This document shows, in pieces, positions 866 to 64,000 of a stretch of DNA of 64,000 bases. The stretch's first letter is position 1, and each line of letters opens with the position of its first letter. This DNA is from Botryllus schlosseri. Lineage: Eukaryota. The notes below the pieces were generated by a model, which saw nothing but the letters and a program-made list of their open reading frames with translations, made no database searches and was not told the DNA's origin. The stretch lies in contig CM119371.1 in the NCBI GenBank assembly GCA_051294905.1, forward strand, positions 29,824,001-29,888,000, read 5' to 3'. The translations under genes and the position numbers were made by a program.

Positions 866-2364
866 CAGGGGTGTCAAACTCAAATTGCGCCGCGGGCCAG
901 ATTCTACCCTTCAAATCGCCCGCGGCCGGACGGATCAGTCAACTGATTCCAAACCGTTACCTCGTGTCCTTGCTTCTCACTTGAACACTAAGCATATATC
1001 AACAATACACCGATCATATAGGAGGGGTTCTATTCCAACAAGTCGCAACATCTTTATTTGCAAACAATTGTGTTGGCAGAAATACGGTGATTGTCCGTTT
1101 GAATATAGTTAAGAGCCGATAAAACAATAGCGTTAACGACAATGTAAGTTGGCATATTTCAATGCTCTCTTTGCTGTAGTCGTAGTCTGCCATTAGCCCG
1201 CGTATGTGCTGTGAGGAATACATGATATTGAACTTTAAACTTGGTCGTAGGAGTTCGGGTTGTTATCATTAAATCGCCAGTCGCGGTTCTTTTCCGAAGT
1301 CGAGGAATATATAATCGATGGGAAGTGACACAGCAGTGCGACAATAGGTATTTGAATTATATATCTGTGTAACATGCAAATTGCAGATATCGATTCCGCA
1401 TTGGCGTTCTCACTTCAGTGCATAGCTACTACTTGGTCCATTTTTCCATAAAACTCTGAATTCAGTGTCCACTTTTTGCCTTCTCGAAGTAGAGAGAGCA
1501 CAACACCATAGTCGGTTGGTTCTAATGTGGCCTATGAACATTGAACATGCTCGGCATTTTCTGTCTTACGAACATTTCACAAATTAGATTCGATTTATAA
1601 TTAGAGCATATAAACATTTCACAAATTATAGATTAGAATTAGAATTAGAGATTCATTTCACAAATTATATTACAGTGAGATTACTTGCCTTTCGCTCTAA
1701 TTTAGTGAAATCAGACAACTAGAATTATCTAAATGTCCAAGTCTGAGCTCAACACTCCGCGCATAAGAATCCATAACACATCATCACCACAGCCTATACC
1801 TGAGCTGAAAGGGTTCCAAAACACAATTTGTATAAGGGTCACTTCATCAGATATCCCTATACATGAAAGGGTACCATCACCAGAGATTCCATAAGAAGCC
1901 GTGTTAGTTCACCAGCGATGGGGGGTCTAAAAAGGTGGGGTCCCCTACACGGGTTTTCGTGTGAGCTAACCAGAGACCACTTAAGACACAACGCCAACTT
2001 GCCACCGATCTACTATTCTACTAACGCTTCCACGTCTGAAGGCACTCCACACGTACCGCCGCATCTGCTGATGATCGAGAACTGCTCACGGACCACATTC
2101 TTAGTTTTAGAAGACGCCGTAGATCGTAGCATCAATAACGGCAATCAATGTTTATCCCACGTCGGACTTGTTTGACGGGATGAAGCCACGCCACCAAGCA
2201 CAGGGAATATTTGACTAAAGTATTTCCTGCAGAAAATCTCAACATTTGTGACAAACTTGCTGGATAATATAAGATTTTCTGAATCTACTCAGGATTGCTT
2301 CGCGGCTGGATGAAATCGTCTGACGGGCCATATGCGGCCATCTGCCGTATGTTTGACACCCCTG
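866..2364. mobile_element. Non-autonomous hAT (Charlie-like) element
   Basis: TIR CAGGGGTGTCAAAC; TSD TCCTAATC; opposite-orientation relative of 34528-35414. Confidence 0.9.
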
Positions 2365-7966: not shown

Positions 7967-9590
7967 AGTAGTATAGTAGATCGGTCTGGGGGTGGCAGGG
8001 GCTCTTATGGGTGCACCCGACCGGTGCCGCGAAAACTCGTCCTGAACCGGTGACCCTTTTGACCCCCTCTCTCGCTCGTGACTCGTACTTTCAGACCCCC
8101 TTCCACCCGACCGGTGCCTTATGAGTGTAGGGATCTCTCGACCGGTGCCTCGAAACTCGTCTTGAACCGGTGACCCTTTTCGGTATAGGGATCACTCGAC
8201 CGGTGCCGCGAAAACTCGTCTTGAACCGGTGACCCTTTTCGGTATATGCATCTCTCGACCGGTGTTGAATATGTATCAAGTAAATAGTCATGTGAATGAA
8301 TCTTTGTTAATGTGTATATCGTGAAAACTCGTGGTCGTGACTCGCCTTTTTTTACTATAGGTGGTGACGGTGATTCACCTGCCGTGTATTCTTACGGGAT
8401 CTCTGGTGATTCGCCATGTGTTCTTTTGAGTGCGTCGGCATATCGCACTTTCGGGTAAAGACATCTCTCGCACGTCGTACTTTCGCATGTCGTACTTTCG
8501 CGTATAGGCTGTGTTGGTGATTCGCCATGTGTTCTTATGGTTGCGTCGGCATATCGTACTTTCGGGTATAGGCATCTCTCGCATGTCATATTGGAAACTC
8601 GTGTTGGCACATCGTACTTTTAGGTATAGGCATCTCTCGCATGTCGTACTTTCGCGTATATGCTGTGGTGGTGATTCGCCATGTGTTCTTATGGCTGCGG
8701 TCGTGATTCGCCCTTTCAGTATAGCCATCTCTCGCATATCGTACTTTCGGGTATAGGCATCACTAAACAGGAAATTCACTAATCTGCAGTGCATTGTGCG
8801 ATTTTGAAAACCAGACGTCGGTGGTTGTATTTTGACCTGTGTGACCCACTAAATACGGTCCGTTTTGGAAATTCGGAGCGCGCACTATCGCATCGATTAT
8901 TCCACTAATCCAGTCGATGCTATTACATTCAGCAGTATTCAGTATTCAGCAGCGACACGAAAAGCGACCAACAAATAACCGCGCTCGTAAATTAACACTT
9001 CAAAAAGTGTAAAATTGATTGCAAATCCCGCGATCGCTGACAAGATAATGTCTCGGGCATAACCATTTTTAGTGACTTGGTGTTACAAACATACCGATCG
9101 CTCACGCGGTGAAATTTTAGTAATCAGTTTGTCACAGAACTTGATTTCGCTGGTAAGATTTAATAAATACCGACTAACAGAACCATCAGTGTGGGTAACT
9201 TGAATAGCAACAAATTATCACTTATTTCCGCCCTAACCCTAATCCTTTGTGAGATTACCACATACTCAAAAAGGTGTGAAATAATTGTAAAATCCTACGA
9301 CCACTCACAGGGTAATGCTTCAGACATAGCGATCGCTCATGATTTGGTGTTACAGACATACCGATCGCTCACAAGGTAATATTTCCGCAATAAGTTTGTC
9401 ACAGAGCCGTCGCAGACGGTGATTCGTAAACCAACAATTTGACACTTTCTGGTGGTTGCTATATGTTTTGACACTTCGGAACGTGGTTGACTTTAGTTGT
9501 ATGATAAGAATCATGCGAATATTCAAGCAATGTGTCAATTTGTCAACTTGAAATGAAACTTACTACACAGCTCAAGTTGATTCGTATCTG
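7967..9590 (+). repeat. Left TIR (1624 bp) with internal subrepeats
   Basis: Reverse complement of 14859-16482. Contains ~59-bp ACCGGT-rich repeats (8019-8262) and GTGATTCGCCATGTG / CGTACTTTCGGGTATAGGC modules (8400-8760). Confidence 0.95.
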
Positions 9591-12500
9591 CATGTTTTAA
9601 ATCGGAAGGAAAATGTATTTTTACTCGGTTAAGTGCTGTGGTTTCAGTGTTTCCAGTGTCGTTGGTATTGTTAAACATTGTCGCCGGTAGCCGTTGGTAT
9701 ACTATTACGAGTGTGAAAACGATTTGCACTCCCTGTGCAGAGTATCGCGATAGTGAACATATTTTTCGCGTGACAAAACAAGATCGTTGTTCAAATGTTA
9801 ATGCATGCATTTCGATTACCGAGTTGCTGTACAATAGAGATGGCTCTACATTAGACCGTGCTGTGTACTTCGATTAAAACCACATGACCCCATGTAAATC
9901 TATTTGCACAACTCGATGATGTTGATATAGTGTTACTAAAATTAATTATTACCTATTTACACAACATAAAAATAACAGTTTATGTCGTAGTAAGTAAGTT
10001 TCTTGAACTCGTGCTTGATGGAAACGAATGGTGACAAGTATGCTTTTGTGTGAAAAATAATTATTTAGAGTAGTGACAGTTTGTGACCAGCGAATGCAAA
10101 TCGATCATGACATTACAATATACGCTTTCGTCAACATAACGACTTGGCGTAGAAACTCTTTCACGTTTTTTCAATAACTGGATTCTCGGGACTTGTTACT
10201 TGTACGATGTATCGTTGGTGTGCAAACTATAACGACCATTTTGTATGATAGTATGTTTTAGTTGAGTTGTATTGTTGTGAGGACAATCATGTGATGACTC
10301 AGCACTTTTCGTTAGCAAAGTAGATTGATTTGTGTGTAAGATGTACGCACCGTAACTAGAAAACGTATGTACTCTGTTGTTGGAGTAGCTGATTTATTGC
10401 TATGACATGGACATATCCTGCAGGCTTGGTTGGATGGTTTTTCTTACGAAAGATGACGCGACCTCGGTGTCGTAAATTGTGTTAACTAAACTCGGATGGA
10501 TACCACAATTGTGCTGGACTTACACATGGTATTCGCATACTGTACACATACAAACTTTTGTGTAAACAACTCTGGTGTTTCTGTTAATACTAGTTCTGTG
10601 TTGAACTACTTGATTATTAAGATACATGAACAACCATTCAGACAATAAAGTTCTTGAGGTATCGAAACAGTTTGAAAGCAACACCAATCATTGTACAGGT
10701 TTGTAGCATGGGAATATCGATTATTTTCGTTTACCATGAATATATTTCATATACCTTTGGTAAGAAATGAGTTGCGTGGGGTAATCATACACAACCTACT
10801 AAAGTTAAACTTGTAGCGTTTGATTGCCTACTTTTTTTTATCATTGTTTGTTGTTAAAAGACGACTGAGTTTACGTCTAAATGTAGTAAGCGGAGAAACT
10901 CAAGTAATAAATTTTACTCGTTTGAAAATATCGATCAATGAAGTAACAGTATCAATATGAGTGGTATATTATTTTTCGCGATATGCAACAAACCTTCTAA
11001 GTAAACTTGTCAAAAATGTATCATGTCATAGTCGGTTGTTATGAAATCGAAACAAAAGTACTTTGATTATCACGACAAAGGGAGTTGAGATGAATGCAGT
11101 ATTTCAGAAGTGAATGTGTATCGTTTGGTATGTTCAGCAATTACTAAATGACCAAAATATCAAACTGTGCATACAACTCGGTTAGTTAAACGATAGAGTT
11201 ACAAGTCGGATGTAATCTCGATTTACAGATGACATCTTGATGATGTAAAGCTCAACCACTCAAATGTGTTCATTGCAAAGTATTTGACACAAACAAAATA
11301 TCGAACGAAGACCCACCACTTGGTTTCATTACCGGGTGAGTGAAAATTGTTTTCTGTTTGCTAGGTATGATTTGCATTTAGAAAATAAAAACGAACTACA
11401 CCGATTAAGCGACGCTGTTTAATATCCGATGAGTGAGTGAAATTTCTTAGGGTTTGATTTAGCGAGTTAATTACCGGCGATTCAATCACATACGAGTAAC
11501 GTCTTTTAGTGGCAGAGTATTGTGACGACATTTACTTTGATGAATGACAATCTCCGATTTCTTTGGTCGTGAGCGTTCTACAAATATTTCCGGCATACAT
11601 TTAGCAAGCAACCTACAATATTCCTTTGTTATGGTAATGACTTTCACAAGTTTGGTTTTACGATTACAATTACTTTAGAAGATTCAAATGAATATTCATG
11701 ATCACTACTTTGAGCAAGAATACAAACACATTTTGCAAATTTCAGTGTAGCGCCTATTGCGATTTTGTTAATGCAATGAGTTTTGTGTATACTCAAGTCT
11801 AGTAGAATAGGATGCGTCCAGTAAAGATATTCCAAATTGCTTCTGTGTTGATCAAAGTCTTGAAGTGTAAATCCGTAGATTTCACAATGTCTTGGAGAGT
11901 GCGACCGGAATTATGTATTGATAGCGCGCTTCAAAGGGTACTCGATACCCAAAGTGATATTTTCACACTCTGTAAGTTGTGTGTGTTTCAATGCGCTGTC
12001 ACAAATCCCGACAATAAATCGTATCAATTACTGGATTCAATAGTAACGATATTGTGATATATTGACTCTACACTTAGTCGTTTCAATTACCCGTTGCGAA
12101 TCGGGATAATAAAACATTTTGTATTGGGTGTTCAATGTATGAATAATGGAATTATTGCATCTTTAGCGTTGTTTATCGCAAACGATAGATTTTAATAATT
12201 GTACTGGTTGTTGAATGTAATAATACCGATATTGCTCTTTCATCTTTAGTCTTGGTTACTGGAAATAATTACATTTGCAAAATATATTTCCTGATATCGC
12301 GATACGCAGAGTGATTTTTATCGAGGTGGAGTAATTCTCCAATCAAGAACATTTCAGACACGTATAGTTTTACAACTTAATATGTTAAGAACAATGGCAC
12401 TGAAAAGTTTGTTGCTGTCATAACATTTACCACAACGCCGTGTCTAATTAACGCGAATAATTTAATAATCAAGTCATGATCAACTATAACATATGTCAAA

Positions 12501-13143
12501 TCAATGTGTCAATCCTTATGTTTACAGCATGATAACTTTGAATATAACACCAGCGTTCGATTGTAAGAAATGAAGTCGCAACTACGTTGATCAGACTTTC
12601 AAATCTCGTATACTCAAACATAGTATGTTAATCTCAAGTCACCTGCACCGAGTAGAAATTACTTTTGTCTTACAAAATATATCGAGTAGTAATTACTTTG
12701 TCTTGCGAAATAGTAACGACTTTTACAGTTGAAAAAAAAAAGACGCGTCGTAGGGGTATGAATACAGCCGAGCTTGTTACGGACTTTAGGTTTTAGTGAT
12801 TGTATGGACTCGTGTATGCTTGGCTGTTTTCATACTGATAATGTTTGAGTTGATTGGGTGAGTTACAAACGGATTTACTTGGCAAGGTTTTTCCTTGTTG
12901 ACTCTTTGGAGTATGGTAAGATGGTAAGATGTCGATGCGTAATACTATTTCCGTTAACTCAATTGCAACAAAAAATAATCAGACAGCTCGTTCAAGGTTT
13001 CGACAAATAGATTGAAATATTCCGATTTAACTCATCGCGTCGCAACTCGATCGCGGTATGCACAAGTGGTTGTCAAGTAAGAAATATTTACAACAGGTGC
13101 TATTTCATTGATTGACTTGATTGTGTGTAGAAACACATTAAAG

Positions 13144-14287
13144 CAGGGGTGGGCAAACTACGGCCCGCGGGCCGCATGCGGCCCGCCACACCGTTCTGTG
13201 CGGCCCGCGAGAGTCTAAAGAAACTTTTTTTAAATATTGATGAAATGCATACTAAAAATCGAATTAATGCAGGGACTTGATTAAACTTTTTAGTATATTT
13301 CACCATGATATTTTTAAGGAAGTGGTTCTCAAACTGGTGGGCGCGCCCAACTTGAGGGGGGAAAGCATCTTAAGAAGGGCGCGAAGCTGAGATCAACTGA
13401 AAAATCTTTTCGCGCTCCGCGCGATTTACATCCAATTCACAGTTGTTGTTCTGTATTTAGTCTCAATTTCATATTTAATAATCTCTCATCCACAGTCGTA
13501 ACCTTCCATGCCATCAAACTACCCGTTAGGTTTGCTAGCATCCTGGTTGCGTTTTGTGATATGACGAGAAAGGGGACACGTAATCTTTCACCATCGTAAG
13601 GGGGCAAAGTTTGGTCTCTTGCAAAGTTTGAAAACCACTGTTCTAAGGTAAATAATTCCTAGATTATTTTTCATGTTTAATATCTGGCGCGACAGCCCGA
13701 TAATAGAGCTCACGCAGTTTGAAAGGTTCAAACTGCTAAAAATCGCAGAAATCCTGAACGAGATTGACGTAATTCGGGTCACGAGTGTGATTTCAGATTG
13801 GCCACTCCAGTTTCAATTTTTTCAGTGAGGTTCTTATAAAAAACGATTCGCGCTTGTCTTAGGTAGATTCGTTCTCTGTATGCGTAGAATTAGGGTATTT
13901 ATATTTTATCCACACACTGTACAAACGTGTTTGAAGCTAACATGGTTATGATGCTGTCAGCATTGTGTATCCAGGAACTGAACCAAAAGTGGAATTAACA
14001 AATCTATGAACCGATCGCTGCTGACACCGACTTTCATCTCTATAGTTTTGACAAATCGGTTGTTGAGGTCGACCAGCCTATGAAATCTCGCCACTGTTTC
14101 TGGCGCATGTACGATATCATCAACGAAATGCTTGGTTTGTCTTTTAATAAGCATCTACATGTCATCAATATATAATCAAATACCAATATTGCGTTTTGGT
14201 TTATAATCCCAATTTTATATAGTGCGGCCCGCGAATGGATTCAGATGTTGAATGCGGCCCGCGAGCTCAAAAGTTTGCCCACCCCTG
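13144..14287. mobile_element. hAT MITE nested in the Polinton-like element
   Basis: TIR CAGGGGTGGGCAAACT; perfect TSD CATTAAAG at 13136-13143 and 14288-14295. Confidence 0.92.
13320..13640. mobile_element. Smaller hAT MITE nested in 13144-14287
   Basis: AGTGGTTCTCAAACT...AGTTTGAAAACCACTG; TSD TTTTAAGG/TTCTAAGG; relatives at ~7655-7935 and ~46978-47250. Confidence 0.8.
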
Positions 14288-14858
14288 CATTAAAGTATCG
14301 CGATAGCATAGTGAAATTATTTACTGAAACTCTATTTGACAAACGGAAAACTCAGTCGTGAATAGAGTTGTAAGGTTTCATTACTTGTTTCAAATCAATA
14401 TGCGTATAATCTTTAAATATGACTGGGTTGAAAGTTGGTAGTCATGTTTGTCAATCTATTTCAATTCAGACTATGTCAAAGCCCAAATATTTCATTTTGT
14501 ATTATCTGGATTTACCTTTAGTAGCCTATACATCTCGCGAGTGGATTCCGACGCCGTACTATAACATTTTTTGATTATTAGGTTTCAAGGATTTTCATGA
14601 TAGAGTTGACAAGTGATAGGAGTTTGATTTCAAGTTGATAAAGACAATAACTGTATAATGCACATACTTGTGATTCTTGATTCTTGTAGAGTTATAGTTG
14701 GTATTGATTCGATAGGTGTGAAAACGGCGGCGCGCAATGTGCGAATAATTCGATGTGGCTAAAAGTCGGCGTCAGTAATATTCAGGTTACGGTCGAATCA
14801 AAAGATCCCGTTAAAAAGATTTCTCAAATTAATTAGAATTGTACCGAATTAACACATT

Positions 14859-16482
14859 CAGATACGAATCAACTTGAGCTGTGTAGTAAGTTTCATTTCA
14901 AGTTGACAAATTGACACATTGCTTGAATATTCGCATGATTCTTATCATACAACTAAAGTCAACCACGTTCCGAAGTGTCAAAACATATAGCAACCACCAG
15001 AAAGTGTCAAATTGTTGGTTTACGAATCACCGTCTGCGACGGCTCTGTGACAAACTTATTGCGGAAATATTACCTTGTGAGCGATCGGTATGTCTGTAAC
15101 ACCAAATCATGAGCGATCGCTATGTCTGAAGCATTACCCTGTGAGTGGTCGTAGGATTTTACAATTATTTCACACCTTTTTGAGTATGTGGTAATCTCAC
15201 AAAGGATTAGGGTTAGGGCGGAAATAAGTGATAATTTGTTGCTATTCAAGTTACCCACACTGATGGTTCTGTTAGTCGGTATTTATTAAATCTTACCAGC
15301 GAAATCAAGTTCTGTGACAAACTGATTACTAAAATTTCACCGCGTGAGCGATCGGTATGTTTGTAACACCAAGTCACTAAAAATGGTTATGCCCGAGACA
15401 TTATCTTGTCAGCGATCGCGGGATTTGCAATCAATTTTACACTTTTTGAAGTGTTAATTTACGAGCGCGGTTATTTGTTGGTCGCTTTTCGTGTCGCTGC
15501 TGAATACTGAATACTGCTGAATGTAATAGCATCGACTGGATTAGTGGAATAATCGATGCGATAGTGCGCGCTCCGAATTTCCAAAACGGACCGTATTTAG
15601 TGGGTCACACAGGTCAAAATACAACCACCGACGTCTGGTTTTCAAAATCGCACAATGCACTGCAGATTAGTGAATTTCCTGTTTAGTGATGCCTATACCC
15701 GAAAGTACGATATGCGAGAGATGGCTATACTGAAAGGGCGAATCACGACCGCAGCCATAAGAACACATGGCGAATCACCACCACAGCATATACGCGAAAG
15801 TACGACATGCGAGAGATGCCTATACCTAAAAGTACGATGTGCCAACACGAGTTTCCAATATGACATGCGAGAGATGCCTATACCCGAAAGTACGATATGC
15901 CGACGCAACCATAAGAACACATGGCGAATCACCAACACAGCCTATACGCGAAAGTACGACATGCGAAAGTACGACGTGCGAGAGATGTCTTTACCCGAAA
16001 GTGCGATATGCCGACGCACTCAAAAGAACACATGGCGAATCACCAGAGATCCCGTAAGAATACACGGCAGGTGAATCACCGTCACCACCTATAGTAAAAA
16101 AAGGCGAGTCACGACCACGAGTTTTCACGATATACACATTAACAAAGATTCATTCACATGACTATTTACTTGATACATATTCAACACCGGTCGAGAGATG
16201 CATATACCGAAAAGGGTCACCGGTTCAAGACGAGTTTTCGCGGCACCGGTCGAGTGATCCCTATACCGAAAAGGGTCACCGGTTCAAGACGAGTTTCGAG
16301 GCACCGGTCGAGAGATCCCTACACTCATAAGGCACCGGTCGGGTGGAAGGGGGTCTGAAAGTACGAGTCACGAGCGAGAGAGGGGGTCAAAAGGGTCACC
16401 GGTTCAGGACGAGTTTTCGCGGCACCGGTCGGGTGCACCCATAAGAGCCCCTGCCACCCCCAGACCGATCTACTATACTACT
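14859..16482 (-). repeat. Right TIR (1624 bp)
   Basis: Reverse complement of 7967-9590; no net indel and no mismatch in spot checks. Confidence 0.95.
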
Positions 16483-31983: not shown

Positions 31984-33072
31984 GGTATTGGGGCCCCGTA
32001 GGGTGGTCAGTTTTCAAGTTGATGACTGAATTTCGTCAATAATATTGGTAATTGCATTATCTTGCTATTCATTCAGATTTACCGGTAGAGCTGGGGGCAA
32101 GTAATTCATAATTATAGCATATGGTATGTTGTTTTAATTTCATTATTGTATGTTGTTAATTCGTGACCTCCCGTCTTTTATATAATCAAAAGATACTGCA
32201 GTCGCCCAAACGTAGCAGACTAAAAGAAAAACTTTCGAGAGACGCACACACAAATTGCCATATCTTCATTCCTCTGTGAGTGCCCCGGGTGGCATTTGCA
32301 TTGTTGGGGCTCAGATTGGAAGGACCGGACTATCCGCCACGCCCACAGAGCGCGGCTACTGACAATAGACACATACCCAAAGTTTTGGCCAAGGTCATTC
32401 TTTGGTAGCACACTTTGTGGAGTTGCATGTTGGCTGAAATTGCTTACGTCTTTTGGTGTGTCTTGGCGGGGTAATGACCGCCACCGAAATGCCTATTCCT
32501 ATAAATTATGCATGTTTTTTTTTTCTTGAGGGGGAGAGGTATCCATTTCAAAATCAAGCTATTTAGAAACATAAAATCCCGAAGCTCGAAGAAAATTTTC
32601 AAGTTAATTAACTCTCTTGAAAATATGTTGATTTACGAAATACTTTTGAGTCCCCTTAGAGCTCGCTCCCGGTCCTATTGGGGAGTTTGGGGTGTGGCAG
32701 TTACCGACCTGGCAAGAATGCAAATCGTTGGGTGCGACGAATAGTCCTGCATAGAGGTGGGCAATGGGTGCATTATGACGTAACAAGCAAATGACGTATG
32801 ATTTATAAAGAAAGTTGTTATCTCATTTTACCTTTTCATCGCAAGCCTTATTTATATTGTCTTCCAATATCTCTTCTGAAATTAGTTCTAAGAAGTAGAC
32901 CAAATGTAATCGGGAGTAATCGTGATTACTTTTGAAAAGTAATGGTAATCGTAATCGACTACTTCCTGATTGGGCTGTAATCGTAATCGTAATCGTAATC
33001 GCGGGGTTCACAAGTAATCGTAATCGCAATCGATTACATTCGGGAAGTAATCACCCCATGTCTGATGCCAAG

Positions 33073-34134: not shown

Positions 34135-37100
34135 CAGGCATGGGGTAATCGTGATTAGTAATCGTAATCGATTGCGACGATTACAGCATTTTCAAGTAAT
34201 CGTAATCGCAATCGATTACATTCGAAAAAAATCCAAAGTAATTGTAATCGTAATCGACTACTTCACATATCTAATCGATTTCTTTGCGAAAGAACGATTA
34301 CTTTTTATTTGTACAATGAATATGACATAACCGAACATTCGTGAACAAGGAAGAGATATTATACCAGGTTATGGAGATCGCAAACGGTTGATTTTCAAAC
34401 GCCACTGCTCATTATGACGTCAGAACTATTAGCTTTGCTAATCCTTGCGTAAGAAGTATCCACAGCCCGCACGTAGTAAATATATATTCGATGTACATTG
34501 TTGTGTGATTGTTAGAACAGTGTAAGCCAGGGGTGTCAAACATACGGCCCGCGGGCCGCATCCGGCCCGCCAGACGATTTCATCCGGCCCGCGAATCAAT
34601 TCTGAGTAGATTGAAAATTTTATTTATTATCCAGCACATTTGTTACAAATGTTGAGTTTTTTTGCAGGAAATACTTTCATTAAATATTCTCTCAAGACAG
34701 CAAATGTCGAGCATGGTCATAGGCCATATTATAACCACCGACTTCGGCGTTGTGGTCTCTACCTCTCTCTAATTCGAGAAGGCAAAACGTGCGCACTGAG
34801 TTCAGAGGTTTTTGGAAAAATGTACCATTAACTAGCTATTCACAGAGGCGAAAGCGCCAATGCGAAAACGTTATATGCAGTTTACATTGAAAATATATTA
34901 GTTACAAAAATAGATAATCCAAATATCTATGATCACACTGCTGTGTAGCTTCCCAACCAATAGGTCCCCGCAGACTTGGGAAGAGAAACCCGACTTGCGA
35001 TTTGATAGGCCTAATATTAACCCAAATTCCAACGTCCGGGTTTACAGGTAAATATCTTGTATTGCTCACAACGCATGCGCTGGGCTAACTACAGATTACG
35101 ACTAGGCAAAGGTCGCATAAAAATATGCCAACTTATGTCGTCGTTAGCGCCACTGTTTTATCGGTTATTAACTGCATTCAACCGGACAATTATCGTATTT
35201 TTGCCAATTTCATTGTTCGCGAATAAAGGTGTGGCGACTTGGTCGAATAAAACCTCTATGATCCGTGTATTATCTATATACGCTTGATAATAAAGTATTC
35301 GAATTAAAAACAAGGGCACAAGGTTACATATTCGAATCAGTAGACTGGTCCGGCCCTCGGGGGGTTTGAAGGCTCGAATCCGGCCCGCGAAGCAATCTGA
35401 GTTTGACACCCCTGGTGTAAGCCATGCTGCATATCAGGTTGTCAATACACTCCAGACGCCACTACCTCGCAGCAAGATAATAATCGCCACTCTGCCTAGT
35501 TTCAAATAGTAACTTATGTCTTGATGTTTGGTTATGCATAGTTAAACGCAGTCTGACCGTTGCTGCTTGGCGAGCAGTAGGCCTATCCATGTAGTAGTAT
35601 ACGTATGTATTGTACGTACACCGGACAAAGATTTGAAATTTTGTACTCGTCAAATAACACATTACGATGGTTAAAATCAACAGCTGCTGAAATATATCAT
35701 AACCGAGCTGTTCTTTGTCGTTTCTCGTAAGGGCAATTTGCAGTATCTGTATTGAGTGGAAGGTAGAATTTTAAGTTCACTTTATCTTATTCTCATATGA
35801 CTCTACTTCAAACGGGCTCCAATCGTTATTTCACAATTCTTCACTCGACATTTATACCTGTCGCCATTGCCATCCACTTATCCACAATGTTAGCGTGGGT
35901 TGTAGGTACAATCACGACCAAAACAACAATTTGTCCCCCACTCCAAACGTTGGTATTGGTAAAGTTGTAACCAAGACACAATGTTCCGAGTCACAAGTCA
36001 ATCTAACTTTTATAGTTTTGACTCGAGTCAAGTCAAGTCATTTTCAATTCACCACCGAGTCAAGTCTGAGTCCAAGTCATAGCTAGTATAGGGCCGAGTC
36101 AAGTCTAGTCACCAAAAAATCGCGACTCGAGTCATTACAACCCTGGGTATTGGAGCCCCAATAGGGTGGTTAGTTTTCAAGTTGATGACTGAATATTGGT
36201 AATTGCGTTATATTGCTATTCATTCAGATTTACCAGTAGAGCTGGGGGCACGTAATTCATAATTATAGCATCTGGTAGGTTGTTATAATTACTTTATTGT
36301 ATATTGTTAATTCGTGACCTCCCGTCCTCTATATAATCAATAAATACTGTAGTCCCCCAAACGTAGCAGACTAAAAGAAAAAACTTTCGTGAGACGCACA
36401 CACAAATTGTCATGTCTTCATTTCTCTATGAGTGCCCCGGGTGGCATTTGCATTGTTGGGCCTTAGATTTGAAGTATCGGACTATTCGTCACGCCCAAGG
36501 AGCGTGGCTACTGACAATCGACACATACCCAAATTTTTGGCCAAGGTCATTCTTTGGTAGCACACTTTGTGGAGTTGCATGTTGACCGAAATTGCAGCCG
36601 TCTCTTGGTGTGTCGTAGCCAATGACCGCCACCGAAATGCCTATTCATATGAATTATGCATGCTTTTTTTCTTGACGGAGATAGGTATGCATTTCAAAAT
36701 CAAGCTATTTAGAGACATTAAATCCCGAAGCTCGACGAAAATTTTCAAGGCTATTAACTCTCTTGAAAATACTCTATAATAATTTATGTTGATTTACGAA
36801 ATACTTTTGAGTCCCCTTCGAGCTCGCTCCCGGTCCTATTGGGGAGTTTGAGGTGTGGCAGTTACGGACCTGGCAAGAATGCAAATCGTTGGGTGCGACG
36901 AATAGGCCTGTATAGGGTTGCGCAATGGGTGCATTATGACGTAACACGCAAATGACGGGTGATGTATAAGGAAAGTTGTTATCTCATTAGACCTTTTCAT
37001 CGCAAGCCTTATATTGTCTTCCAATATCTCTTCTAAATTTAGTTCTAAGCAAAACAAATGTAATCGTGAGTAATCGTGATTACTTTTGAAATGTAATCGT

Positions 37101-37206
37101 AATCGTAATCGACTACTTCCTGATTTTGCTGTAATCGTAATCGCGGGATTCACAAATAATCGTAATCGCAATCGATTACATTCGTGAAGTAATCACCCCA
37201 TGGCTG
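34135..37206 (+). mobile_element. Non-autonomous hAT element, copy B
   Basis: TIR CAGGCATGGGGT; TSD GTTCAATG; collinear with 29907-33064. Confidence 0.9.
34528..35414. mobile_element. hAT MITE nested in copy B
   Basis: TIR CAGGGGTGTCAAAC; TSD GTGTAAGC; empty site in copy A. Confidence 0.9.
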
Positions 37207-39084
37207 GTTCAATGTGCATCTCGTCATGCAGTAGCCTATATATTTTTTCTCATATATGACTGCAATAAACTATTTTTAGGAACATTCTGTCTCTGTGTGT
37301 TTGTAGACGGCCAGCATCAGGTAGCATTATGGCATTTTCTGACCAGTTAAGTGCACAGCTGGTGAGGGTTGGAAAATAGACTTTTGGCCTCTTAATTTTC
37401 TTGTAAAAAGGCTGAGTGTAAGGACTGCGGTGGATCACCTTAAACCATTCTACCAATGATAGGACGCATCTATACAAATTTCACAGACTGCTCCAAGGGC
37501 CGAGGTCAATTCTTCCAGTCAGTCGTTTTATTACATGCCAGTTGCCTATCTTTTCCTCGTATGGTGCATTGATTTGGTGAGATTATTAACAAACCGCGCT
37601 GATTGTGCTACTGCCGAGACTCGCACTGCAGCTTCCCAGATAAGAGACAAATTATAGACTATTCCGGTACTTCAAAATGGGGCTATCTACGGTTTGTGTT
37701 GAGCCCGTTTTGGAGTTGAAAAAGACTGCTAATCTACGAAAAAACTGTTGCCATCTTGAATAAATTCATGGTCGAGTATTTTTGCAGTGTTTTTGATGAA
37801 GTCAACGTATTTTCAGCGGCAGGGACTCCATACCTACAATGTAAGACCGTCCATTGACAGCAGTTAACATATACCTCAGTGATGAATGAAGGACTGGAAT
37901 TGCGCGCCTCTAGTGGTTTGACCATAGATGTGAATGTCTCACATTGGTGCCTTATATATGTTACGATAATGCACAAAGGTGTTACGCGTTAATAATATAG
38001 ATTCGCAACCATCTATCTTTGTGGAAATGTATTTTTGCCTCTCGTTCATATCAAATCGACGGCGCGGATTTTCAAGACACGGCCGCGTATTTCAAGAAAT
38101 GTTGCTACATACTCTGCTTTAAAATAATACAAGTATTCCTAATTTATACATAAATCATATGATGAAAGGTCAATTTGTTATTGTTTTTCACTAGCCTGCA
38201 GTTAATACATACACACGACAGATGATGGTTTTGCGCGATAATTGAGCTAAGTTTGAACTAAAACTGGGGGGTTCGGGGCGGTCCAAAGCGGGTCCGCGGA
38301 GACAAAAAGGTGTAGAACCACTGCTCTAGATGTTTTTGTGCATTTCAAGTATCTCAGCCACTATTTTCAATCAAACATTTCAGGTACATTCATAACGCAA
38401 ACTATATTGTACTTCTGTGCTTTTTAATATGTGAGTTGGTGCGCACTTGTGCGGATGACAAACGTGGCACGGATGAGTGCAGATAAAAATCATGAATAAT
38501 TGCTACTTATTATGACGTGGAATCATTCAACTAAACCTAATAGGAAATTCAAGTGCAGTAACTCCCTAACTTTTGACGTTGCGGAGCAATTATAAAACTG
38601 ATTTGAATTACCACGCACGGGTAATCGTAGCCTGTACAACAACTTTGTCTCGCACTGGCCGCAGTGGATTAATATTTGCGCCCTGTTGTTATTATTATTA
38701 CGTAATCAAAAATCTAGTTTGAAAACGGGTGTAGTAGCAGACATACAGTGCATCAGGACTTATGAGCCTGCGAGATGCTTGCACAAATTACGTACTAAAG
38801 TGTCGAATAGCACGGGGCACGAAAATAGTAGTAAATGCCATCATTATAGACTCACCTTGGCAAGTTACTTTTACGAAAATTGTCCCCCTTCAAGTGTTTT
38901 AAAGTATCGGTCGCGAAGGAATAATTTTGAGTCGCAATAATAGTTCCATGGGATAGTTTTTGCATATCAAAGTTACTGTGTTGGGTACTATATCCAAAAA
39001 GCGGGACACCCAGAAAATATAGCTTGATCATGATAACGTGCCGACTTTTGTATTACACAAATTGGTTTGAATTCATGATAAGAT

Positions 39085-39398
39085 TTAGGAATAGGACGTA
39101 GAATACTTTTGTTCTTGATGTTTTTGGGGCATATACACTGATTCAAGATATATTCATGCACACGATCTGTGCATTAGCATACCATGAGTGCATGATGTGC
39201 ATATGCCGCTGAACGATAGAGCAGATATAGCCTTAAGGCTTTTTATTTCTTTCACCACCCGTGCATGCCAACCGACAAGCGGCGAAGCCGTGGAAACCCG
39301 CAGTACTACTAATCAGGTTTTTGGTATGAATCATCAGGGGATTTAACCCAAGTCTTCCTAAAAATACGGACTCTCCACCATTACGCTATCTTGTCGGT
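39085..39398 (-). mobile_element. tRNA-derived SINE (duplicate of the 19190 copy)
   Basis: Same family, with the same flanks as 19190-19503. Confidence 0.75.
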
Positions 39399-39642
39399 AA
39401 AATGTCCGGCTGCATCTCTGAAAAACACCGTTGGAGACCGTTGGGATTCTTGGTTGTGTGTGCAACGAGTGGGTGCGGACCTATGAGACGCATTCATTTT
39501 GAGGCCAAACCCTTCTGCGTCGGGATACAAAAAAAAGCTTATTTGGGCGAAATGGGTTTTATTGCACTACAGTTGATATCAAACCAGGGAACCAGGGACC
39601 AGGGACAGTTGTCTTTTTAATGAGACGCTCGATGGACTAAAC

Positions 39643-40101: not shown

Positions 40102-41054
40102 GTCCGTGGACATATTAGCATGCGACACAATAGCAAGCGACACTTGAGCATGCGACACTTGAGCATAGCGACTTTTGGTCATGGCGACTCGTGGGCATGT
40201 AGACATATCAGCACAGGGACATATTAACATGAGGACATATTAGCATGGGGACACATAGGTATAGGGACACACGAGCATGGATACGCGTGAGCATAGGGAC
40301 ACATCAACATGGTGACAATTTAATATGTGCCACATGAGCATGGTGACACATGAGCATGCGATACATGAGCCTTGACGACACATGAGCATGGGTACACAAG
40401 AGCATTGGCACACATGCGCATATGAACACATGGGCATGGGGACATAAGAGCAAAGGTGCACATGAGCATGGGGTCATGTACGCATGCGACACTTGAGCAT
40501 GCGACACGTCCACATGCAGACACTTGAGCATGCGACACGTGAATATGCAGACACTCGAACCTGCGACACTTGAGCATGCGACAGTTGAGCATGGGACAGT
40601 TGAGCATGCGAAAATTGAGCATGCGACAATTGAGCATGCGACACTTGGGCATGGGACACGTGGATATGCAGACACTTGAGCATGCGACACTTGAGCATGT
40701 GGTCATGCTACACTTGGGCATGCGACACTTGGGCATGCAACACTTGAGCATGCGACACTTGAGCATTCGACACTTGAGCATGCGACACTTGGGCATGCGA
40801 CACTTGGGCATGCGACACTTGAGCATCAGACACTTGGGCATGCGACACTTGGGCATGTGGTCATGCTACACTTGGGCATGCGACACTTGGGCATGCGACA
40901 CTTGGGCATGCGACACTTGAGCATGCGACATTTGTGCATGCGATATGTGTGCATGCGACACTTGAGCATGCGACATTTGTGCATGCGATATTTGGGCATG
41001 CGACACTTGCGCAATGCGACACTTGAGCATGTGACCATATATTAGCGCGTAACC
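40102..41054 (+). repeat. 15-bp minisatellite array (GAGCATGCGACACTT)n
   Basis: Directly visible tandem units; explains the low-complexity ORFs. Confidence 0.92.
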
Positions 41055-44829: not shown

Positions 44830-45056
44830 GTTTAGAATCTACTTTCAAACGCTATATCCAGCATCGTGGCGTCCCCGCATCGACAACAAACTTCATTCTG
44901 CATGTGTATGCACATTCACACTGCACAGTGCACAGTCTTGTGATGTGCAGGATTGAAATATACAGACTGCAATTTCCACTGATGTCATGTTTCCCTAACC
45001 GCAGTCGAAGCTAGCCGTGAAATCGAGTTATTTTATTTATTAATAGTAGCATGTTG

Positions 45057-46021
45057 CAGTGTTGGGATCAAGTCACTACCTTCGAGTCACGAGTCATTTC
45101 GATTCATTGCACATTTTGACTCGAGTCAAGTCAAGTCAATCGATTTTCGAAGGTGACTCGAGTCAAGTCAAGTCACTCGATTTTTGGAGGTGACTCGAGT
45201 CAAGTCGAGTCAAGTCAAGTCAAGTCACGAGTCAAGTCACGAGTCAAGTCAAATTGCCTTTTCGAAGTATGAGGCATGATAACGTCATTGCATTTTGCTA
45301 GCTGTCTGATTAACAGATTGATGTGGTCATTTATTCTGAACCGATGAACGAATATAAAGTTAAATATACACGCAAGAAGGCACTGTATCGCTCACATAGG
45401 CATATACGTAGAACTGTTCAACTACGTAAGTAATTGCATAACCTCAGTTTATAGTTACCAGCCAAACTTGAAAAACGAATTGATAAGATGCAATACTTTA
45501 CTCATTTACATGTTGATATGATACCATTCGAGCCTACACCAATGGTTGATGAGTATATAAACTATATTCGAATTCAATTTCAATAAAACAAGAGGTTTGG
45601 TTAAGGTATAAGAACAGAAAACAGAAATGAATATTATGCTATTAAAATACCTCACTACTAGTTTACGACAACCTATGCTGTATACTTCAATTACTACGTA
45701 TGTGGTCATTTTATTTATTTGAGACATCGTGAGACACACGATCATTGAGTGATTTGTCGCTCTCACGGGTTACACCAGCGTTTCGCGAACAATCCGAACC
45801 TATATAAGATACAGTGATTTTTATCGACACCGATTACTTGATGACTTGAAATTGACTCGTGAATTTTGCTCCGAGTCACGAGTCAATCCACATTTTTGAT
45901 GATCCGAGTCAAGTCAAGTCAAGTCATTTTTGCAAAGTGACTCGAGTCAAGTCAAGTCATACGAAAAAGGTGACTCGAGTCTGACTCGAGTCAAGTCATG
46001 ACACGAGTCATCCCAACACTG
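45057..46021. mobile_element. GACTCGAGTC-type MITE (family of 20518-21512)
   Basis: TIR CAGTGTTGGGAT; TSD GCATGTTG. Confidence 0.9.
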
Positions 46022-46094: not shown

Positions 46095-46658
46095 ACTTGC
46101 TCAAGTGTCACATGCTCAAGGGACGCATGCTAAAATGTGGCACGCTCAAGTGTCGCATGCTCAATTGTGGCATGCTCAAGTGTCGCATGCCCAAGCGTCG
46201 CATGCCCAAGCGTCGCATGCCCAAGCGTCGCATGCCCAAGCGTCGCATGCCCAAGCGTCGCATGCCCAAGCGTCGCATGCCCAAGCGTCGCATGCCCAAG
46301 CGTCGCATGCGCAAGTGTCCGCGTGCTCATTTGTCACCATGCTAATATGTCACCATGCACAAGTGTTAACATGCTGAAGTGTCCCAATCGTTATGTGCCC
46401 CCATGCTCACGTGTCACCATGCCCATATGTAACCATGTTCATTAGTCCCCATGCTAATGTGTAACAATGCTCAAGTGTCGCACGCTAAACTGTCCCCATG
46501 CCCATGTGTCCCCTTGGTCATATTTCAACATGCTCATATGTCCCCATGCTCATGTGTCCCTATGCTCATGTGTTACCATGCTAATGTGTCCTCATGCTGT
46601 AGCGTCGCATGCTCAACTGTCGTTTTGCATTGTGTCGCATGCTCATATGTCGGGCAAC
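46095..46658 (-). repeat. Same 15-bp minisatellite in inverted orientation
   Basis: A (CAAGCGTCGCATGCC)n run plus diverged units; its outer end resembles the reverse complement of 40102-40160. Confidence 0.92.
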
Positions 46659-48029
46659 CGCGTCATCCCGATCACGCGGCCCCGCGCAGGTTGAAAGATT
46701 TCAACTGATAAACATCACATAAATCCTAAACGAGATTGTCATAATTTGGATCACTAGTGTGATTTCAGATTGGCCAATCCAGTTTCAATTATTTTAGTGA
46801 TGTGCTTATAAAAAAACGATTCGCGCATGCCTCAGTGATCCAAATTATGACAATCTCGTTTAGGATTTATGTGATGTTTATCAGTTGAAATCTTTCAACC
46901 TGCGCGGGGCCGCGTGATCGGGATGACGCGCCAGAAATTAAACATAAAAATGATATAGGAGGTATTTACCTTAGAACAGTGGTTCTCTAACTTTTTAAGA
47001 CACCCCCACCCCTTATGATGGTAAAAGAGTTCACGCCCTCTTATCGTCATATCACAAAACGCAACCAGGATGCTAGCAAACTTAACGGATAGTTATATGA
47101 CATGGAAGGTTACGACTGTGGATGAGAGATTTCTAAATATGAAATCCAGACTAAAATACAGAGCAACAAGTATGAATGGGATGTAGATCACGCCAAGCGC
47201 GAATTTTTTTTTAATTTGACCTCAGCTTCGCGCCCATCTTGAGATGCCATAATCAATTACCAGCACTCGGCGTATATCGCGCCGGAAACCTGTGCAATGT
47301 GCCTACGTGCAGGACCGTAACAGCACTTCGTCAGCCCCCTCAATAACAAAACGTTGTTCTTGGGTCACAGAGGGCGATAAACCTAACTTCTGGCGGGCTT
47401 TACCCCCAGACCTCCCCTTACGATACCTTGTTACCGCTACTTCTCAGCGAAGTTTTTGTACCGTTCATTTAGTCGTTTTGTTTCGAATAAACCACGCGAA
47501 GCGCGAAAATATTTCATAATTCATAATTGAATTGGTCAACATGATCGGGAATTGCATATATATATATATATATATAGCTGTAAATTTTTTATGCTATCTC
47601 TGCTCATGCATTCAGATTTATCTGTCGAGCTGAGTGAGGCGTTTTGGAATATGATAAAATGATATAATTTTTCTAAAAAGTTGCATAAATTTTCAAAAAA
47701 TACTCTATAATTTATGTTAATTCACGAATAGTTTTGGCCCCCCTTCGAGCTCCCCTCCCTCAATTAAGGTGGTTTGGTGTACGGCAGTTACGGTCCTGCA
47801 TACGTGTGTATAAAGAGCTGTCCCGGAGGTTTATACCTGACATATTTGGTATGTGAATTGTGAATAGTGAACACGCAGCATTAAATTCCGAGTCCATTCG
47901 TATTAAATTCAAGTCAATCCGACCAAAATTGTAGAGTTTATGACCGTGATAGAATTGCTTATGACAATTTTAGCAATAGGCTACCTCGAACATGAATGTA
48001 GGGCATTTTGAAAAATTCCAGTTGGCGAT

Positions 48030-52210: not shown

Positions 52211-54106
52211 TTGCTCTAAACTAGTATCAAAAAGAATGTGTATACACACCCAAAGGCCTGAAAAGGGTGATATACGAAAACAGAACCTAAATCAGAAATA
52301 TATCGCGGTCATAAATCCTATACTTTCCTACGTTCCTACGTGCATGCATAATTTGGATTAAAATATTGTACTCGATTTTTACCAAGTATAAGTCCGAGGT
52401 AGGTCCCGGTTTCGTGTGCCATGGGTGTATATTCAAACCTGTATATCATGGGTGGTACAGTGGTGGAAATACACACTCTTTTTGCTACGTGCTCACTACT
52501 CCCAGGCTTTCGCGCGAAGAAGCTCGATTTTAGATGACGATATCATATAAGATGAAGAAGATGTAACTGAGGAGTGAGCCTTATACAATCCAAGTCACGT
52601 CACCAATATGTTGAGTGGAAATAAGAGATATAATCAAGTAACGAGCCATATACAAACTATCTCACCTTGTAGACTTTCCGCCGATATCACGAGAGCGAGG
52701 TACAGCAAATACAGCGACGGCATCATGGATTAGCACGAAACAAATCGACGCTGCAAATCAGTTGATGGAGAGGAACTTTCCGAAATATTTATAGAATACG
52801 ATTCAATTCCGGGGAAATACAATCAATTCCGAAATGTTGTGGTCTACGGATGTTACAGCCAATCAAACGTTTGCTATAATATAACGTTGTATGTTTCGTA
52901 ATGTAGGTTGTCCTGTAAGTGCACCAGAATAAGATTGTTGAAATAGGCTTTGTATTAAACGTAAGGTTCCTTTTTCAGGTTTATCATAATGTCCTCCGAG
53001 GACGCCTAAATGTCTTCCTTTATGGAATTCGCCCATCTTTACAGCTTTTACAGCTAGGATAATGGACAGGTTCAACTGAAAATCGGCATAAATGACGGGA
53101 AGTATGTAATATGGAAGTTCGAGCGGGTCATTCGACAGTCGGACGTAAGTGACGACCCTTTTTTCAGTCAACGCCGCTACATTCAAGTAAAAATAAGGTA
53201 ATCTGGGAGTCGAATGAAATTGATCACTTTTTTCTTTTTATTTAACTCAACAAAATTTCCAGTACATATTGCAAAATCGGCTGTTTTCAGTTTCGATCAA
53301 GTAACTTTACCGACTTGGCAAAAGTGTCCTTTCCCGATTCCAAAATATAGTACCCCTAACACCTTAATTAAACGTCCACCTCAACACATACTATGATCCG
53401 GATAGAAGACGGGCATTGCTTATGATCCATAACAACGGTACTCACATCAGAGCTACGAAGTCCCAAACTCCGACTCCAGTTACTTCATACACAGTACATA
53501 CCGATTCCTAATACTTTCTTACAAAACATGTGAATCAACCTATTTTTGTGAATTTGAAAAATAATGTGCTCGCAAAATATGATTAGGCATATGAAGGTTT
53601 GTCTGCGTCAGTGGTCCCCAGCGTGTGCGGTAGCACCCCCGGTGGCCGATTTACAGAAACAATGGGGCGAAAATACCAAAGGGGACGATTGGAGGTCGAA
53701 CATGTTAGTTAGAACGTCTAGTGAGATATATTTAATTAACACGGATAAAAATTGCACGTTGAGACGGCTTATTCTACATATCTCGTGAAAGTTGACTAAA
53801 AAAGGGTCAACGCAGCGGAGAGTGCTCTCGGAAACTGATTTTACGAGAACCGTTTTGGAAAAATAACCTTTCTTTACTCAATTCACCAGCGATCAGCGAC
53901 TCCAGCCCTTATGCTTCAATCCGACTCGGACTGCAAAGAGGGTTACAAAACAGAGAAAGTACTAGAGATGATTTACTGAGACATTTCACTGGATTGCTAA
54001 AATCATATTCCGCACCATTACTTAGAATTATTGAATTATAAGTTCATAGTCCCTTTATAAACTTTCGCATAGATCCCCATGACTGCGACAACCTCGTTAT
54101 TCCATC

Positions 54107-55021
54107 CAGTGTTGGTATCAAGTCACTACCGTCGAATCACAAGTCGTCTCGAGTCAATGCACATTTTGACTCGAGTCAAGTCAAGTGAATCGATTTTTGA
54201 AAGTGACTCGAGTCAAGTCAAGTCACTCGATTTTTAGGGTGACTCGAGACAAGTCGAGTCAAGTCAAGTCAAGTCACGCGTCAAGTCACAATTCGCGTCA
54301 AGTCGTCTTTTCGAAGTAGGAGGCATGATTAAATTCATCGCAATTTACTACTTGTTTGAAAAAGAGATTTAGTCACCATTTATTTTAAATCGAGGACCAA
54401 ATATGGACTTTAATATGCATGCAAAAGGGCGTTGTATATAGCTCACGCATCCGCCACAAATAGCGAATAGAATAAGAAACCTCAGATAGTTGAAACGAAT
54501 ATATACGATGCACTACCCACATATATATCCACGGGATACAATTTAAGCCTGAGCCAATTAAATTTAAATCATACAAGAGGTTTGGTTAAGGTGAGCACCA
54601 AGCCCAAATGACCAGTCAATAGCAAAGATAGATACTTAGTTGGTACATTTCTAGTTAACGACAAAGTGGTAACATACACCATAAGCTCTCATCACTTATT
54701 TTACGGTCAATTAATTTGTGATAAAACATCGGAGGTTCAGTGAATCGCCAAATCATTGAATGAATGAAAGAAATTGACCGCTCTCACATGTCACACCAGC
54801 GTATCAAGAAGAATCCGAACACATGCAAGATACAGCGATTTTTATCGACACCGATTACTTGATGACTTGAAATTGGTTCGTCAATTTTGCTCCGAGTCAC
54901 GAGTCACGAGTCAATCCAGATTTCAGAAACGCCGACTCTAGTCAAGTCATTTTTGCAAATTGACTTGACTTGAGTCAAGTCAAGTCATTCGAAAATGGTG
55001 ACTCGAGTCATTCCGACACCG
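54107..55021. mobile_element. GACTCGAGTC-type MITE (older copy)
   Basis: CAGTGTTGGTAT...TTCCGACACCG; TSD ATTCCATC/ATTCCGTC. Confidence 0.82.
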
Positions 55022-60982: not shown

Positions 60983-61686
60983 CTGAAATCATTACTCCGG
61001 CTTTTTTTTTACGAATGAAAGAGTCCTCGGCATTGTTGAATTGATTTATGAGAACAATATCGTAGTTCACTTCTAGGTGACGATGCTGTAAAGTTGTGTT
61101 TCCTGGAAAGTAAGACTGTTGGACTGGGAGTGGTGCAGTGCTGGTCCAGTTTTTACGGATGGTGAATATATTATTTTAGCATTTCTTTAATACCTATACA
61201 GCCCTGTCCTGTCCACGCAATACACCGATTCCTAATTTGAGTAAGGATAAGCAAGGCCACAAGGTATTGGAGATGAATAGACTCTAAATATACATGTACG
61301 TCATTTAATGACGAGAGCGTTGCAGTTGACTTTCGTCAGTAAATTATGCGAAGCTTACATTGTTTCGAGTGCTCCTCGTATAAGCGTATCAATATCTTTG
61401 ATAGAATTTCCGTTTGTCGTGTGCGAGTTAACAAGGGTGGATGTAGCCGCAACAATGGCAACATGCAGATCGCGTCACAGGGGGATTTTAAAGTACTTGG
61501 CTGGGTATTCCGTTTTTGACACAAGTATCAGTATCAGCTTATTAATATTTTCCTCAATACAAAACACCACAAACTGCGACACAATGAGAAGATCGAAAGG
61601 TGTCGAAACGACTTGGAGTGGTCTTTGGGATCAGACACCCACCTTGGCCTAGGCGAAGTAGAGAAGAGGCATGTACATTGCACAGT

Positions 61687-64000
61687 AGTAGTATATATGA
61701 TCGGTCTGGGTGTGCCTGGGGCTCTTATGGGCGGGGTGGTGATGTGCCTGAAAACCCGGGGTGGTGATGGTACCCTTTTAGACCCCCTTGTGGTGGTGAT
61801 GTGCCATGTGTTCTTATGGGTGCGGTGATGATGGTACCCATTCAGGTATAGGCTGCGGCGATGATGTGCCGTGAAAACTCGTGGCGGTGAGTCGTACTTT
61901 CAGGTATAGGCTGCGGTGATGATGTGCCTATGCGGTGATGATGGTACCCTTTCAGATATATGCTGTGGCGATGATGTGCCCACGGATTCTTGTGTCGTAG
62001 TGAACTAATGTTGTTGGTATAGGCTGCGGTCATGAGGTGATGTTGATTACGAAGTATATTGATCACGTGATTGATCCTTAGTTATTGTGTGTACCCCAAA
62101 TTCTTATATATGACCGATTCGAGGTAATCCTAACGTTTACGGTGAGTGCGACTTCAAGATATCGTTATTCTTATGGCCGCGGCGGTGATTCGTACTTTCG
62201 GGTATAGGCCGCGGGCGGCATGTCGTACTTCCAACAGAAAGGGTGTGAAATAGTTTGCTAAATATAGGAATCACTTGCAAGGTAATATTTCGGTAATTAG
62301 TTTACCACAGAGCCGGCGGTAGACGGCGATTCGAATACCAACAATATCCGCGTTCACATACTAACACTTCAAAAAGGTGTGAAATATTTGTAAAATCCTA
62401 CGAGCGCTCACAAGATAACACATCAGACATAGCCATCTCTCGCGGTTTGGTGTTACAGAGGTAGGAATCACGCACAAGTAATATTTTGGTAATTAGTTTG
62501 TCACAGAACCGGCGTAGACGGTGATTCCAATACCAGCAATAGCCGCGTTCACAAACTAACACTTTAAAAAGGCGTGAAATAGGTTGCAAATCCCGCGATC
62601 GCTGACAAGATAACACCTCACACATAGCGATCACTTGTGACTTGCTGTTACATACATTCCAATCGCCACAATGTAATATTTTGATAATCAGTATGTCACA
62701 GAACTGGATTTCACTGGTAAAATTTAATAACTAACGAATAACAGAACCGTCGCAGACGGTGATTCGAATACCGACAAATTCTCACTTATTTCTGATCCAA
62801 CCCTAATCCTTTGCGAAGTTGACGCTTATTCAAAAAGGTGTGAAACAATTGTAAAACCCCACGTCGCTGACAGGATAACGCATCAGACATAGCGATCTAG
62901 TTATAGCACGTTGTCGGAATCCATTCGCGTTCTATAGGTAAACTGAGGTAATCCGAAACGAAATATTTTGACTTGGCGTAGTGTGAATTGAAATAGGATT
63001 GACAAACTTGACTACCATCTTTCCAAGTGCCATTTCGATATTATACGCACATTGATGTGAAACAACTAATGAAACATTACAACTCTATTCACGATCCGGC
63101 TTTCCGTTTGTCAAAGAGATATTTTAACATCTTACCATACTCAAAAGAATTATTCACAACATTAACCGGTGTTGAAAATATAGTTTTCACTTACTTGATT
63201 TTATCACTACAACTCGCAAACTTGAATTAATTCATCCTGGTTGTATTCATATGACCGATAATTTTTATTCAACTGTAAAAGTCGTTACTATTCTGTAAGA
63301 TAGAGGAATTACTACGCGGTATATTCTGCAAGACAAAGTAATTATTACTCGATATGTTTTGTAAGACAAAAGTAATTACTCTTCGGTACAGGCGACTTGA
63401 GATTAACATAATATGTTTGAGTATACGAGATTTGAAAGTCTGACCAACGTAGTTGAGAATTCATATCTTACAATCGAAAGCTGGTGTTATATCGAAAGTT
63501 ATCATTCTGTAATTTATCATTGACCGTACAGAGTTGCTGACATTCCAATGTCTTTTACGCTGTAATAAACGGATTCATTTGTGATAATTTAATTCTCGGT
63601 TATTGTTCAGACATTCAAATCTCGTATACTCAAAATGTAATTGGTTTATGTCAAGACGTATATGCAGCGATTAGTAAATACTTTGTCTTACAGAATAGTA
63701 ACGACCTTTACAGTTGAATAAAAATTATCGGTCATATGAATACAACCAGGATGAATTAATTCAAGTTTGCGAGTTGTAGTGATAAAATCAAGTAAGTGAA
63801 AACTATATTTTTAACACCGGTTAATGTTGTGAATAATTCTTTTGAGTATGGTAAGATGTTAAAATGTCTCTTTGATAAACGGAAAGCCGGATCGTGAATA
63901 GAGTTGTAATGTTTCATTAGTTGTTTCACATCAATGTGCGTATAATATCGAAATGGCACTTGGAAAGATGGTAGTCAAGTTTGTCAATCCTATTTCAATT
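61687..64000. mobile_element. Second, diverged Polinton-like non-autonomous element, cut by the window end
   Basis: Starts AGTAGTATATATGATCGGTCTGGG..GGGGCTCTTATGGG like element 1. 62230-62900 resembles 9000-9480; 62910-63510 resembles the reverse complement of 14330-14555 and 12525-12733. Confidence 0.8.
62986..64000. repeat. Long inverted repeat (arms ~62986-63300 and ~63686-64000+), axis ~63493
   Basis: Mirror ORFs 63027-63230(+) and 63756-63959(-) differ at 2 of 67 aa. Confidence 0.9.

Follow-up and report, generated by a model that had tools for sequence, protein, structure and literature searches.

Copy-back or snap-back defective genomes and the palindromic deletion derivatives of protein-primed linear replicons share a spare architecture: two inward-facing copies of one end, no genes, and the possibility of forming a long hairpin. 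Non-autonomous Polintons are said to exist in zebrafish. How Mavericks replicate, and how the identity of their TIRs is kept up, has been modelled and little tested. The papers cited in this text give the following picture: vertebrate Mavericks most often have 5'-(AGT)2//(ACT)2-3' ends and 6-bp TSDs, with TIRs of 46-1447 bp in intact elements (PMC8097293); TIRs of ~2 kb are reported for butterfly Polintons (10.1101/2025.02.07.637071); an anole study counts fewer than 10 Polintons and no non-autonomous copies (PMC3014272); general gene content is covered in PMC6431247; and panhandle origins are described for protein-primed replicons (PMC4046053). Foldback elements, whose TIRs grow by recruiting interior sequence, have longer TSDs, of 8-10 bp in Tetris and 7-8 bp in Galileo (PMC4079207, PMC4168063). 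A search by title and start of abstract, in literature outside Repbase, Dfam and most subscription journals, turned up no description of a near-palindromic non-autonomous Maverick.

The DNA considered here, referred to as the window, is a 64,000-nt stretch of the Botryllus schlosseri genome: repeat-rich, 40% G+C, and with only 10 ORFs of at least 120 aa. One repeat family within it is represented by a complete member (E1), a second member that runs off the right edge (E2), and a third fragment:

7967..16482, no strand assigned: E1, complete family member, with AGTAGT..ACTACT ends, TSD GTCGTA, a TIR of 1639 bp and no Pfam match in the scanned frames
1777..2022, minus strand: third, more diverged right-hand terminal fragment of the family, 62-65% alike (~65% to the first 240 bp of E2)
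61526..61686, plus strand: dispersed host repeat that harbours E2, with homologs at 17586-17743 and 29706-29562 (reversed)
61681..61686, plus strand: predicted left TSD copy of E2, CACAGT, 6 bp, from the register and the host-repeat homolog at 17586-17743
61687..61705, plus strand: left terminus of E2, an end-pattern match with its AGTAGT motif in register with E1
61687..63300, plus strand: left arm of E2, presumed TIR, 1614 bp, mirrored within the window over 62986-63300 only
63686..64000, minus strand: visible part of the right arm of E2, 98.7% complementary to 62986-63300, running off the window

The ends are what define the family. A 19-letter end pattern has exactly four matches in the window, at 2004-2022 (minus), 7967 (plus), 16464-16482 (minus) and 61687 (plus), and none at all in any of 100 shuffled windows; the original prediction, that E2 opens with the terminal motif of E1, is borne out. 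The register of the end at 61687 is shared by the two ends of E1 and by the third fragment ending at 2022 (a partner for which was sought in 1-1750, and none found). Its register with E1 favours 61687 over 61684 as the probable start of E2. In public sequencing runs X1, X15 and X5, loose ends at 61677 have the host repeat continuing without E2. E1 is flanked on both sides by GTCGTA, a 6-bp TSD seen in one insertion only; its TIRs are perfect over 7967-9590 (1624 bp), with mismatches at 9591, 9596 and 9601, and the perfect part has a sharp inner edge.

How do these elements compare with Mavericks? (AGT)2//(ACT)2 termini are present at both ends of E1 and at the left end of E2, the family has a 6-bp TSD (GTCGTA in E1, one insertion), and the TIRs are long: 1639 bp in E1 and at least 315 bp as seen in E2. 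At ~1.6 kb, the TIRs of E1 and E2 lie above the range given for intact vertebrate Mavericks in PMC8097293, and the family is apparently high-copy, unlike the anole Polintons as portrayed in PMC3014272. The Maverick gene set (protein-primed PolB, integrase, ATPase, protease, capsid) was not encountered in the 74 stop-to-stop frames scanned within the window, none of which has a Pfam match at E 0.01 (the scan took in 74 of 89 listed frames, the other 15 being tandem-array frames and those in the right TIR of E1 that are mirror copies). The longest stop-free frame of E2 is 110 aa; the window has no Rfam match. The family's membership among the Mavericks thus depends on its ends and one TSD, its genes being absent. 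E2 also differs from known non-autonomous Mavericks in other respects: no coding remnant was found, and its TIRs are predicted to make up ~89% of its length. The best reading of E2 is nonetheless as a non-autonomous member of a Maverick/Polinton-type family, ~3.6 kb long by extrapolation.

The architecture is that of a foldback element. The left arm of E2 carries short subterminal repeats and ~195-bp modules at 62264-62704, with a partial copy extending to ~62898, and long TIRs with internal tandem modules around a short middle are what PMC4079207 and PMC4168063 describe for Galileo, Tetris and FB. Might the ends, then, merely resemble those of a Maverick, and the family be moved by a cut-and-paste transposase of Mutator or P type? 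Its modular TIRs and short middle would fit, as would the lack of any Maverick gene remnant in the scanned frames. The (AGT)2//(ACT)2 ends and the 6-bp TSD of E1 do not: they are those of Mavericks, whereas P- or Mutator-type foldback elements have TSDs of 7-10 bp, including those of Tetris and Galileo cited above. We regard this alternative as highly improbable. If E2 is what it appears to be, foldback architecture has arisen in a Maverick-type family and not only in Mutator and P types.

E1 is itself a composite. A short TIR element is nested in it at ~13144-14288, bounded by an 8-bp duplication, CATTAAAG; its ends are those of what we take to be a hAT-like element, and it is broken in turn by another repeat (~13361-13860; homologs at 46685-47247 and 7689-7935). 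The nested element shows that the TIRs of E1-type copies stayed perfect even as the copies bore or took up later insertions.

E2 is colinear, in reverse, with the right side of E1, as originally proposed from the letters alone. Four segments make up the correspondence: 62538-62897 with 15475-15115 (79%), 62900-63119 with 14565-14331 (77%), 63262-63292 with 12739-12709 (97%) and 63322-63512 with 12712-12522 (91%); between the 79% and 77% segments, E2 skips ~550 bp of E1. E2 does contain a mirror repeat: when 62986-63300 is set against 64000-63686, 4 of 315 positions are mismatched (63110, 63120, 63174 and 63280), the 100 outermost pairs are identical, and there is no decay at the window edge. 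The two outer arms are also equally distant from E1 (114/133, or 86%, and 113/133, or 85%). These near-perfect arms are better read as homogenised TIRs, comparable to the 1624 perfectly matched bases of E1, and judging by their likeness they appear to have been made alike recently. Only 315 bp of the mirror lie inside the window, which ends at 64000; by arithmetic from 61687, and assuming no further indels, the mirrored end of E2 should fall at 65299, for a length of 3613 and the TIR fraction given above.

The core of E2 (63301-63685) is another matter. Its parts are:

63289..63391, plus strand: 33-bp tandem unit, 3 copies, at which arm homogeneity stops
63322..63512, plus strand: inner half type A, 91% like E1 12712-12522
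63498..63554, no strand assigned: unpaired middle, ~57 bp, holding the A/B junction (63512 to ~63521), with a loose end in run X16 before 63521
63555..63695, minus strand: inner half type B, paralogous to A but inverted and diverged (71-78%), and 77% like E1

Identity falls abruptly at 63301, where the left arm carries two extra 33-bp units (there are 3 copies on the left of E2, 1 on its right and 2 in E1); the step, from 311/315 outside to 103/145 inside, sits at this array. The original prediction placed a fold-back with slightly mismatched arms at ~63493. The inverted, slightly mismatched arms are there; the clean fold axis is not. From 63311 towards the centre, blocks of 25 have just 5-10 complementary pairs when aligned without gaps about 63493. 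What symmetry the inner ~385 bp retain is a gapped inverted match of 63357-63497 with 63695-63555 (103 of 145 columns, or 71%; score 56, against 22 for the best of 500 base shuffles), with its axis near 63526, 33 bp away. In the middle, over 63480-63573, the strand is no more complementary to itself than expected by chance, an equal or better score being reached by 23% of 500 shuffles.

A recent copy-back hairpin, made by one template switch at ~63493 during strand displacement, would account for near-perfect outer arms and for a strand that folds as a long hairpin. Such a fold is indeed predicted for 63240-63746 (-121 kcal/mol, z -17.5, a stability matched by none of 100 shuffles), and the arms would lead one to expect it. 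E2 also shares with copy-back defective genomes its two inward-facing copies of one end, its lack of genes and its capacity to form a long hairpin. It differs from them in being chromosomal and amplified as a family, and in its inner halves, which are old paralogues of unequal ancestry instead of a perfect mirror: arms of copy-back origin should pair all the way to a single junction closed by a short loop, and in E2 the complementarity collapses at 63301; both arms should be equally related to the parent type, and this is true of the outer arms and not of the core. Over one homologous interval, the left half matches E1 at 113/124, the right half matches E1 at 93/121, and the halves match each other at 94/120 (78%); the difference in likeness to E1 (91% against 77%) is significant (Fisher p=0.003). 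Neither inner half was recently copied from the other, since they are only 78% alike and unequally like E1. Inner halves 71-78% alike with indels, an axis off by 33 bp, an unpaired middle, and only one strand-changing joint among 15 joints listed from public runs (208 further) are additional embarrassments to this mechanism, which is largely refuted for this copy, E2, and which we consider very improbable.

A fold-back long ago is a different proposition. The original anatomy is right in that both halves are homologous to the same, right-hand end of E1; what does not fit the core is a single switch at ~63493. In an older version, one intramolecular fold-back would have been followed by decay of the core, homogenisation of the outer arms, and overwriting of the left inner half by E1-type conversion. 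Diverged symmetry reaching to within ~57 bp of the centre, the mosaic relation of E2 to E1 (77-91% by segment) and the absence of B from the left interior of E1 are all compatible with it. It requires an extra conversion event to account for 91% versus 77%; A-type homology to E1 passes the symmetry limit at 63497 and reaches 63512; and B has a different neighbour in two contigs of run X16, where it is preceded, before 63521, by other sequence (this last is also a weak hint that B occurs in longer family members). That the paired ends first came about through an old copy-back we judge unlikely, though not far-fetched.

The left half being 91% and the right half only 77% like E1, the A/B split is old and precedes the parting of A between E1 and E2. 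Halves that differ in ancestry, in an abundant family, might also be produced by two separate copies that came to lie head to head through nested or adjacent insertion, with no shared TSD. Such copies should not have arms 98.7% identical to one another and only ~85% like E1, in a family most of whose aligned run contigs are less than 99% alike; nor is there an end motif at the A/B junction. Two insertions are accordingly quite improbable.

The explanation that we favour, as probable though far from assured, is that two old, paralogous family ends were joined head to head, and that the product has been amplified in trans by a Maverick while its arms were kept alike by correction. The proposed steps are these: 1) An end of type A, corresponding to the right side of E1, and an end of type B, a ~22% diverged paralogue, would have become joined at 63512-63521, either by internal deletion of a longer member whose two ends were of type A and type B, or by template switch or recombination between members of two subfamilies. 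2) TIR copy correction, in which one arm serves as the template for repair of the other, plausibly while a single strand is folded as a panhandle, would hold the outer ~1.6 kb of both ends close to identity. 3) Correction would end where the 66-bp indel in the 33-bp tandem array breaks the register. 4) E2 would have moved in trans, its AGTAGT ends being recognised by an autonomous Maverick, which would supply integrase and protein-primed polymerase and make 6-bp TSDs. That panhandles drive arm correction in E2 is argued by analogy with the panhandle origins described for protein-primed replicons (PMC4046053).

Several points count against this favoured account. The mirror is seen over 315 bp, the predicted far terminus and right TSD falling beyond the window. 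The left interior of E1 has no type B sequence, so that the longer A...B parent is unobserved (nor was an old hidden palindrome found in the interior of E1, where there are only the ends of the nested MITE and one weak 57-bp match at E 0.03). And a family-wide A/B junction can only be presumed: of the pieces from the public runs, none of the 32 listed bridges it (53,919 further).

The public runs bear on several of these points. Part of 62900-64000 is contained in 20 of the 24 runs listed, the best having 0.45 of the words. Four runs (X1, X5, X15 and X16), from four separate studies and chosen apart from the seawater and marine metagenome runs, were aligned to 61300-63690 at 85% likeness, and coverage extends to 30 of 30 bins in all four. 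Summed depth in X1 is 75,000-320,000 over 62980-63690 and 30-38 in the unique flank, bearing in mind that summed contig depth is not copy number; dips in depth, as in bin 63460-63539, were not counted as evidence. The arms, A and B of E2 are multi-copy, because arms and core are far deeper than the unique flank in all four runs. (Against the left flank, 61300-61615, X1 has 0 substitutions and a single gap; possibly X1 is itself the source sample, and it is not counted as independent support.)

Palindromes are a known artefact of long reads, and assembly or library fold-back might be suspected here: the A/B junction is bridged by no contig among the 32 listed. Two considerations make an artefact scarcely credible. 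The two sides of the core have diverged and do not mirror each other; and three of the four runs, from separate studies, contain the strand-changing joint 63295/63689 (three contigs in X1, one in X16 and one in X5; depth is 0 in X15), so that an assembly artefact is unlikely. This joint, the sole one that changes strand among the 15 listed in these short contigs, shows only B adjoining the mirrored arm. Among 24 loose ends listed (2066 further) there is no right-hand terminus with a TSD, and two loose-end motifs have only chance-level matches in the window, the best being 16/21 and 15/23.

The autonomous helper that the favoured explanation calls for was not found in scans of viral, metagenome and prokaryote genome contigs. 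Viral contigs have no match to a core 21-mer and none to the terminus pattern; a looser terminus pattern finds two, both inside ORFs and without flanking similarity, which are put down to chance, as are five metagenome matches, all limited to 21-23 matching bases. Prokaryote genome contigs have none.

One further thought may be offered about where correction stops. The homogenised arms are nearly equal in length, 1624 bp in E1 (edge at 9590) and 1614 bp in E2 if mirrored (edge at 63300), and yet their inner edges are non-homologous: that of E1 lies in the ~550-bp stretch absent from E2. It is conceivable, and decidedly doubtful, that the family is a swarm of gene-less, high-copy, foldback-shaped Maverick parasites in which correction between the two arms extends over a fixed distance: the same speculation likens them to defective-interfering genomes fixed in the chromosome. 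Its basis is two elements, one of extrapolated length, and an indel also explains the edge of E2. Were it true, the replication machinery would measure off ~1.6 kb starting at the terminus, and genomic copies of the family would allow the panhandle model of Maverick replication to be tested directly. As a single copy, E2 is an otherwise ordinary non-autonomous transposon. The family is of wider use: multi-copy and non-coding, with corrected arm sequence giving way sharply to uncorrected, it records correction tracts and could be surveyed in one long-read genome.

Some other features of the window deserve mention. CpG observed/expected is 1.28 in E1, 1.26 in E2 and 1.11 in the window as a whole; CpG not being depleted, heavy methylation decay of these repeats appears unlikely. 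Dispersed repeats of 1.7-2.2 kb without long ORFs (18013-19749 with 37933-39642, and 30874-33064 with 35415-37206; 85-88% identity) are further non-autonomous families. An element of ~1 kb is present in three copies (20517-21512, 45056-46021 and 54106-55009), with AGTCA-rich tandem arrays of 37, 33 and 5 bp near both ends. Finally, two arrays of a 15-bp unit, 40109-41035 and 46095-46651, lie ~5 kb apart in inverted orientation (71-87%): possibly another foldback-like element, or else two copies of an element that bears a minisatellite.
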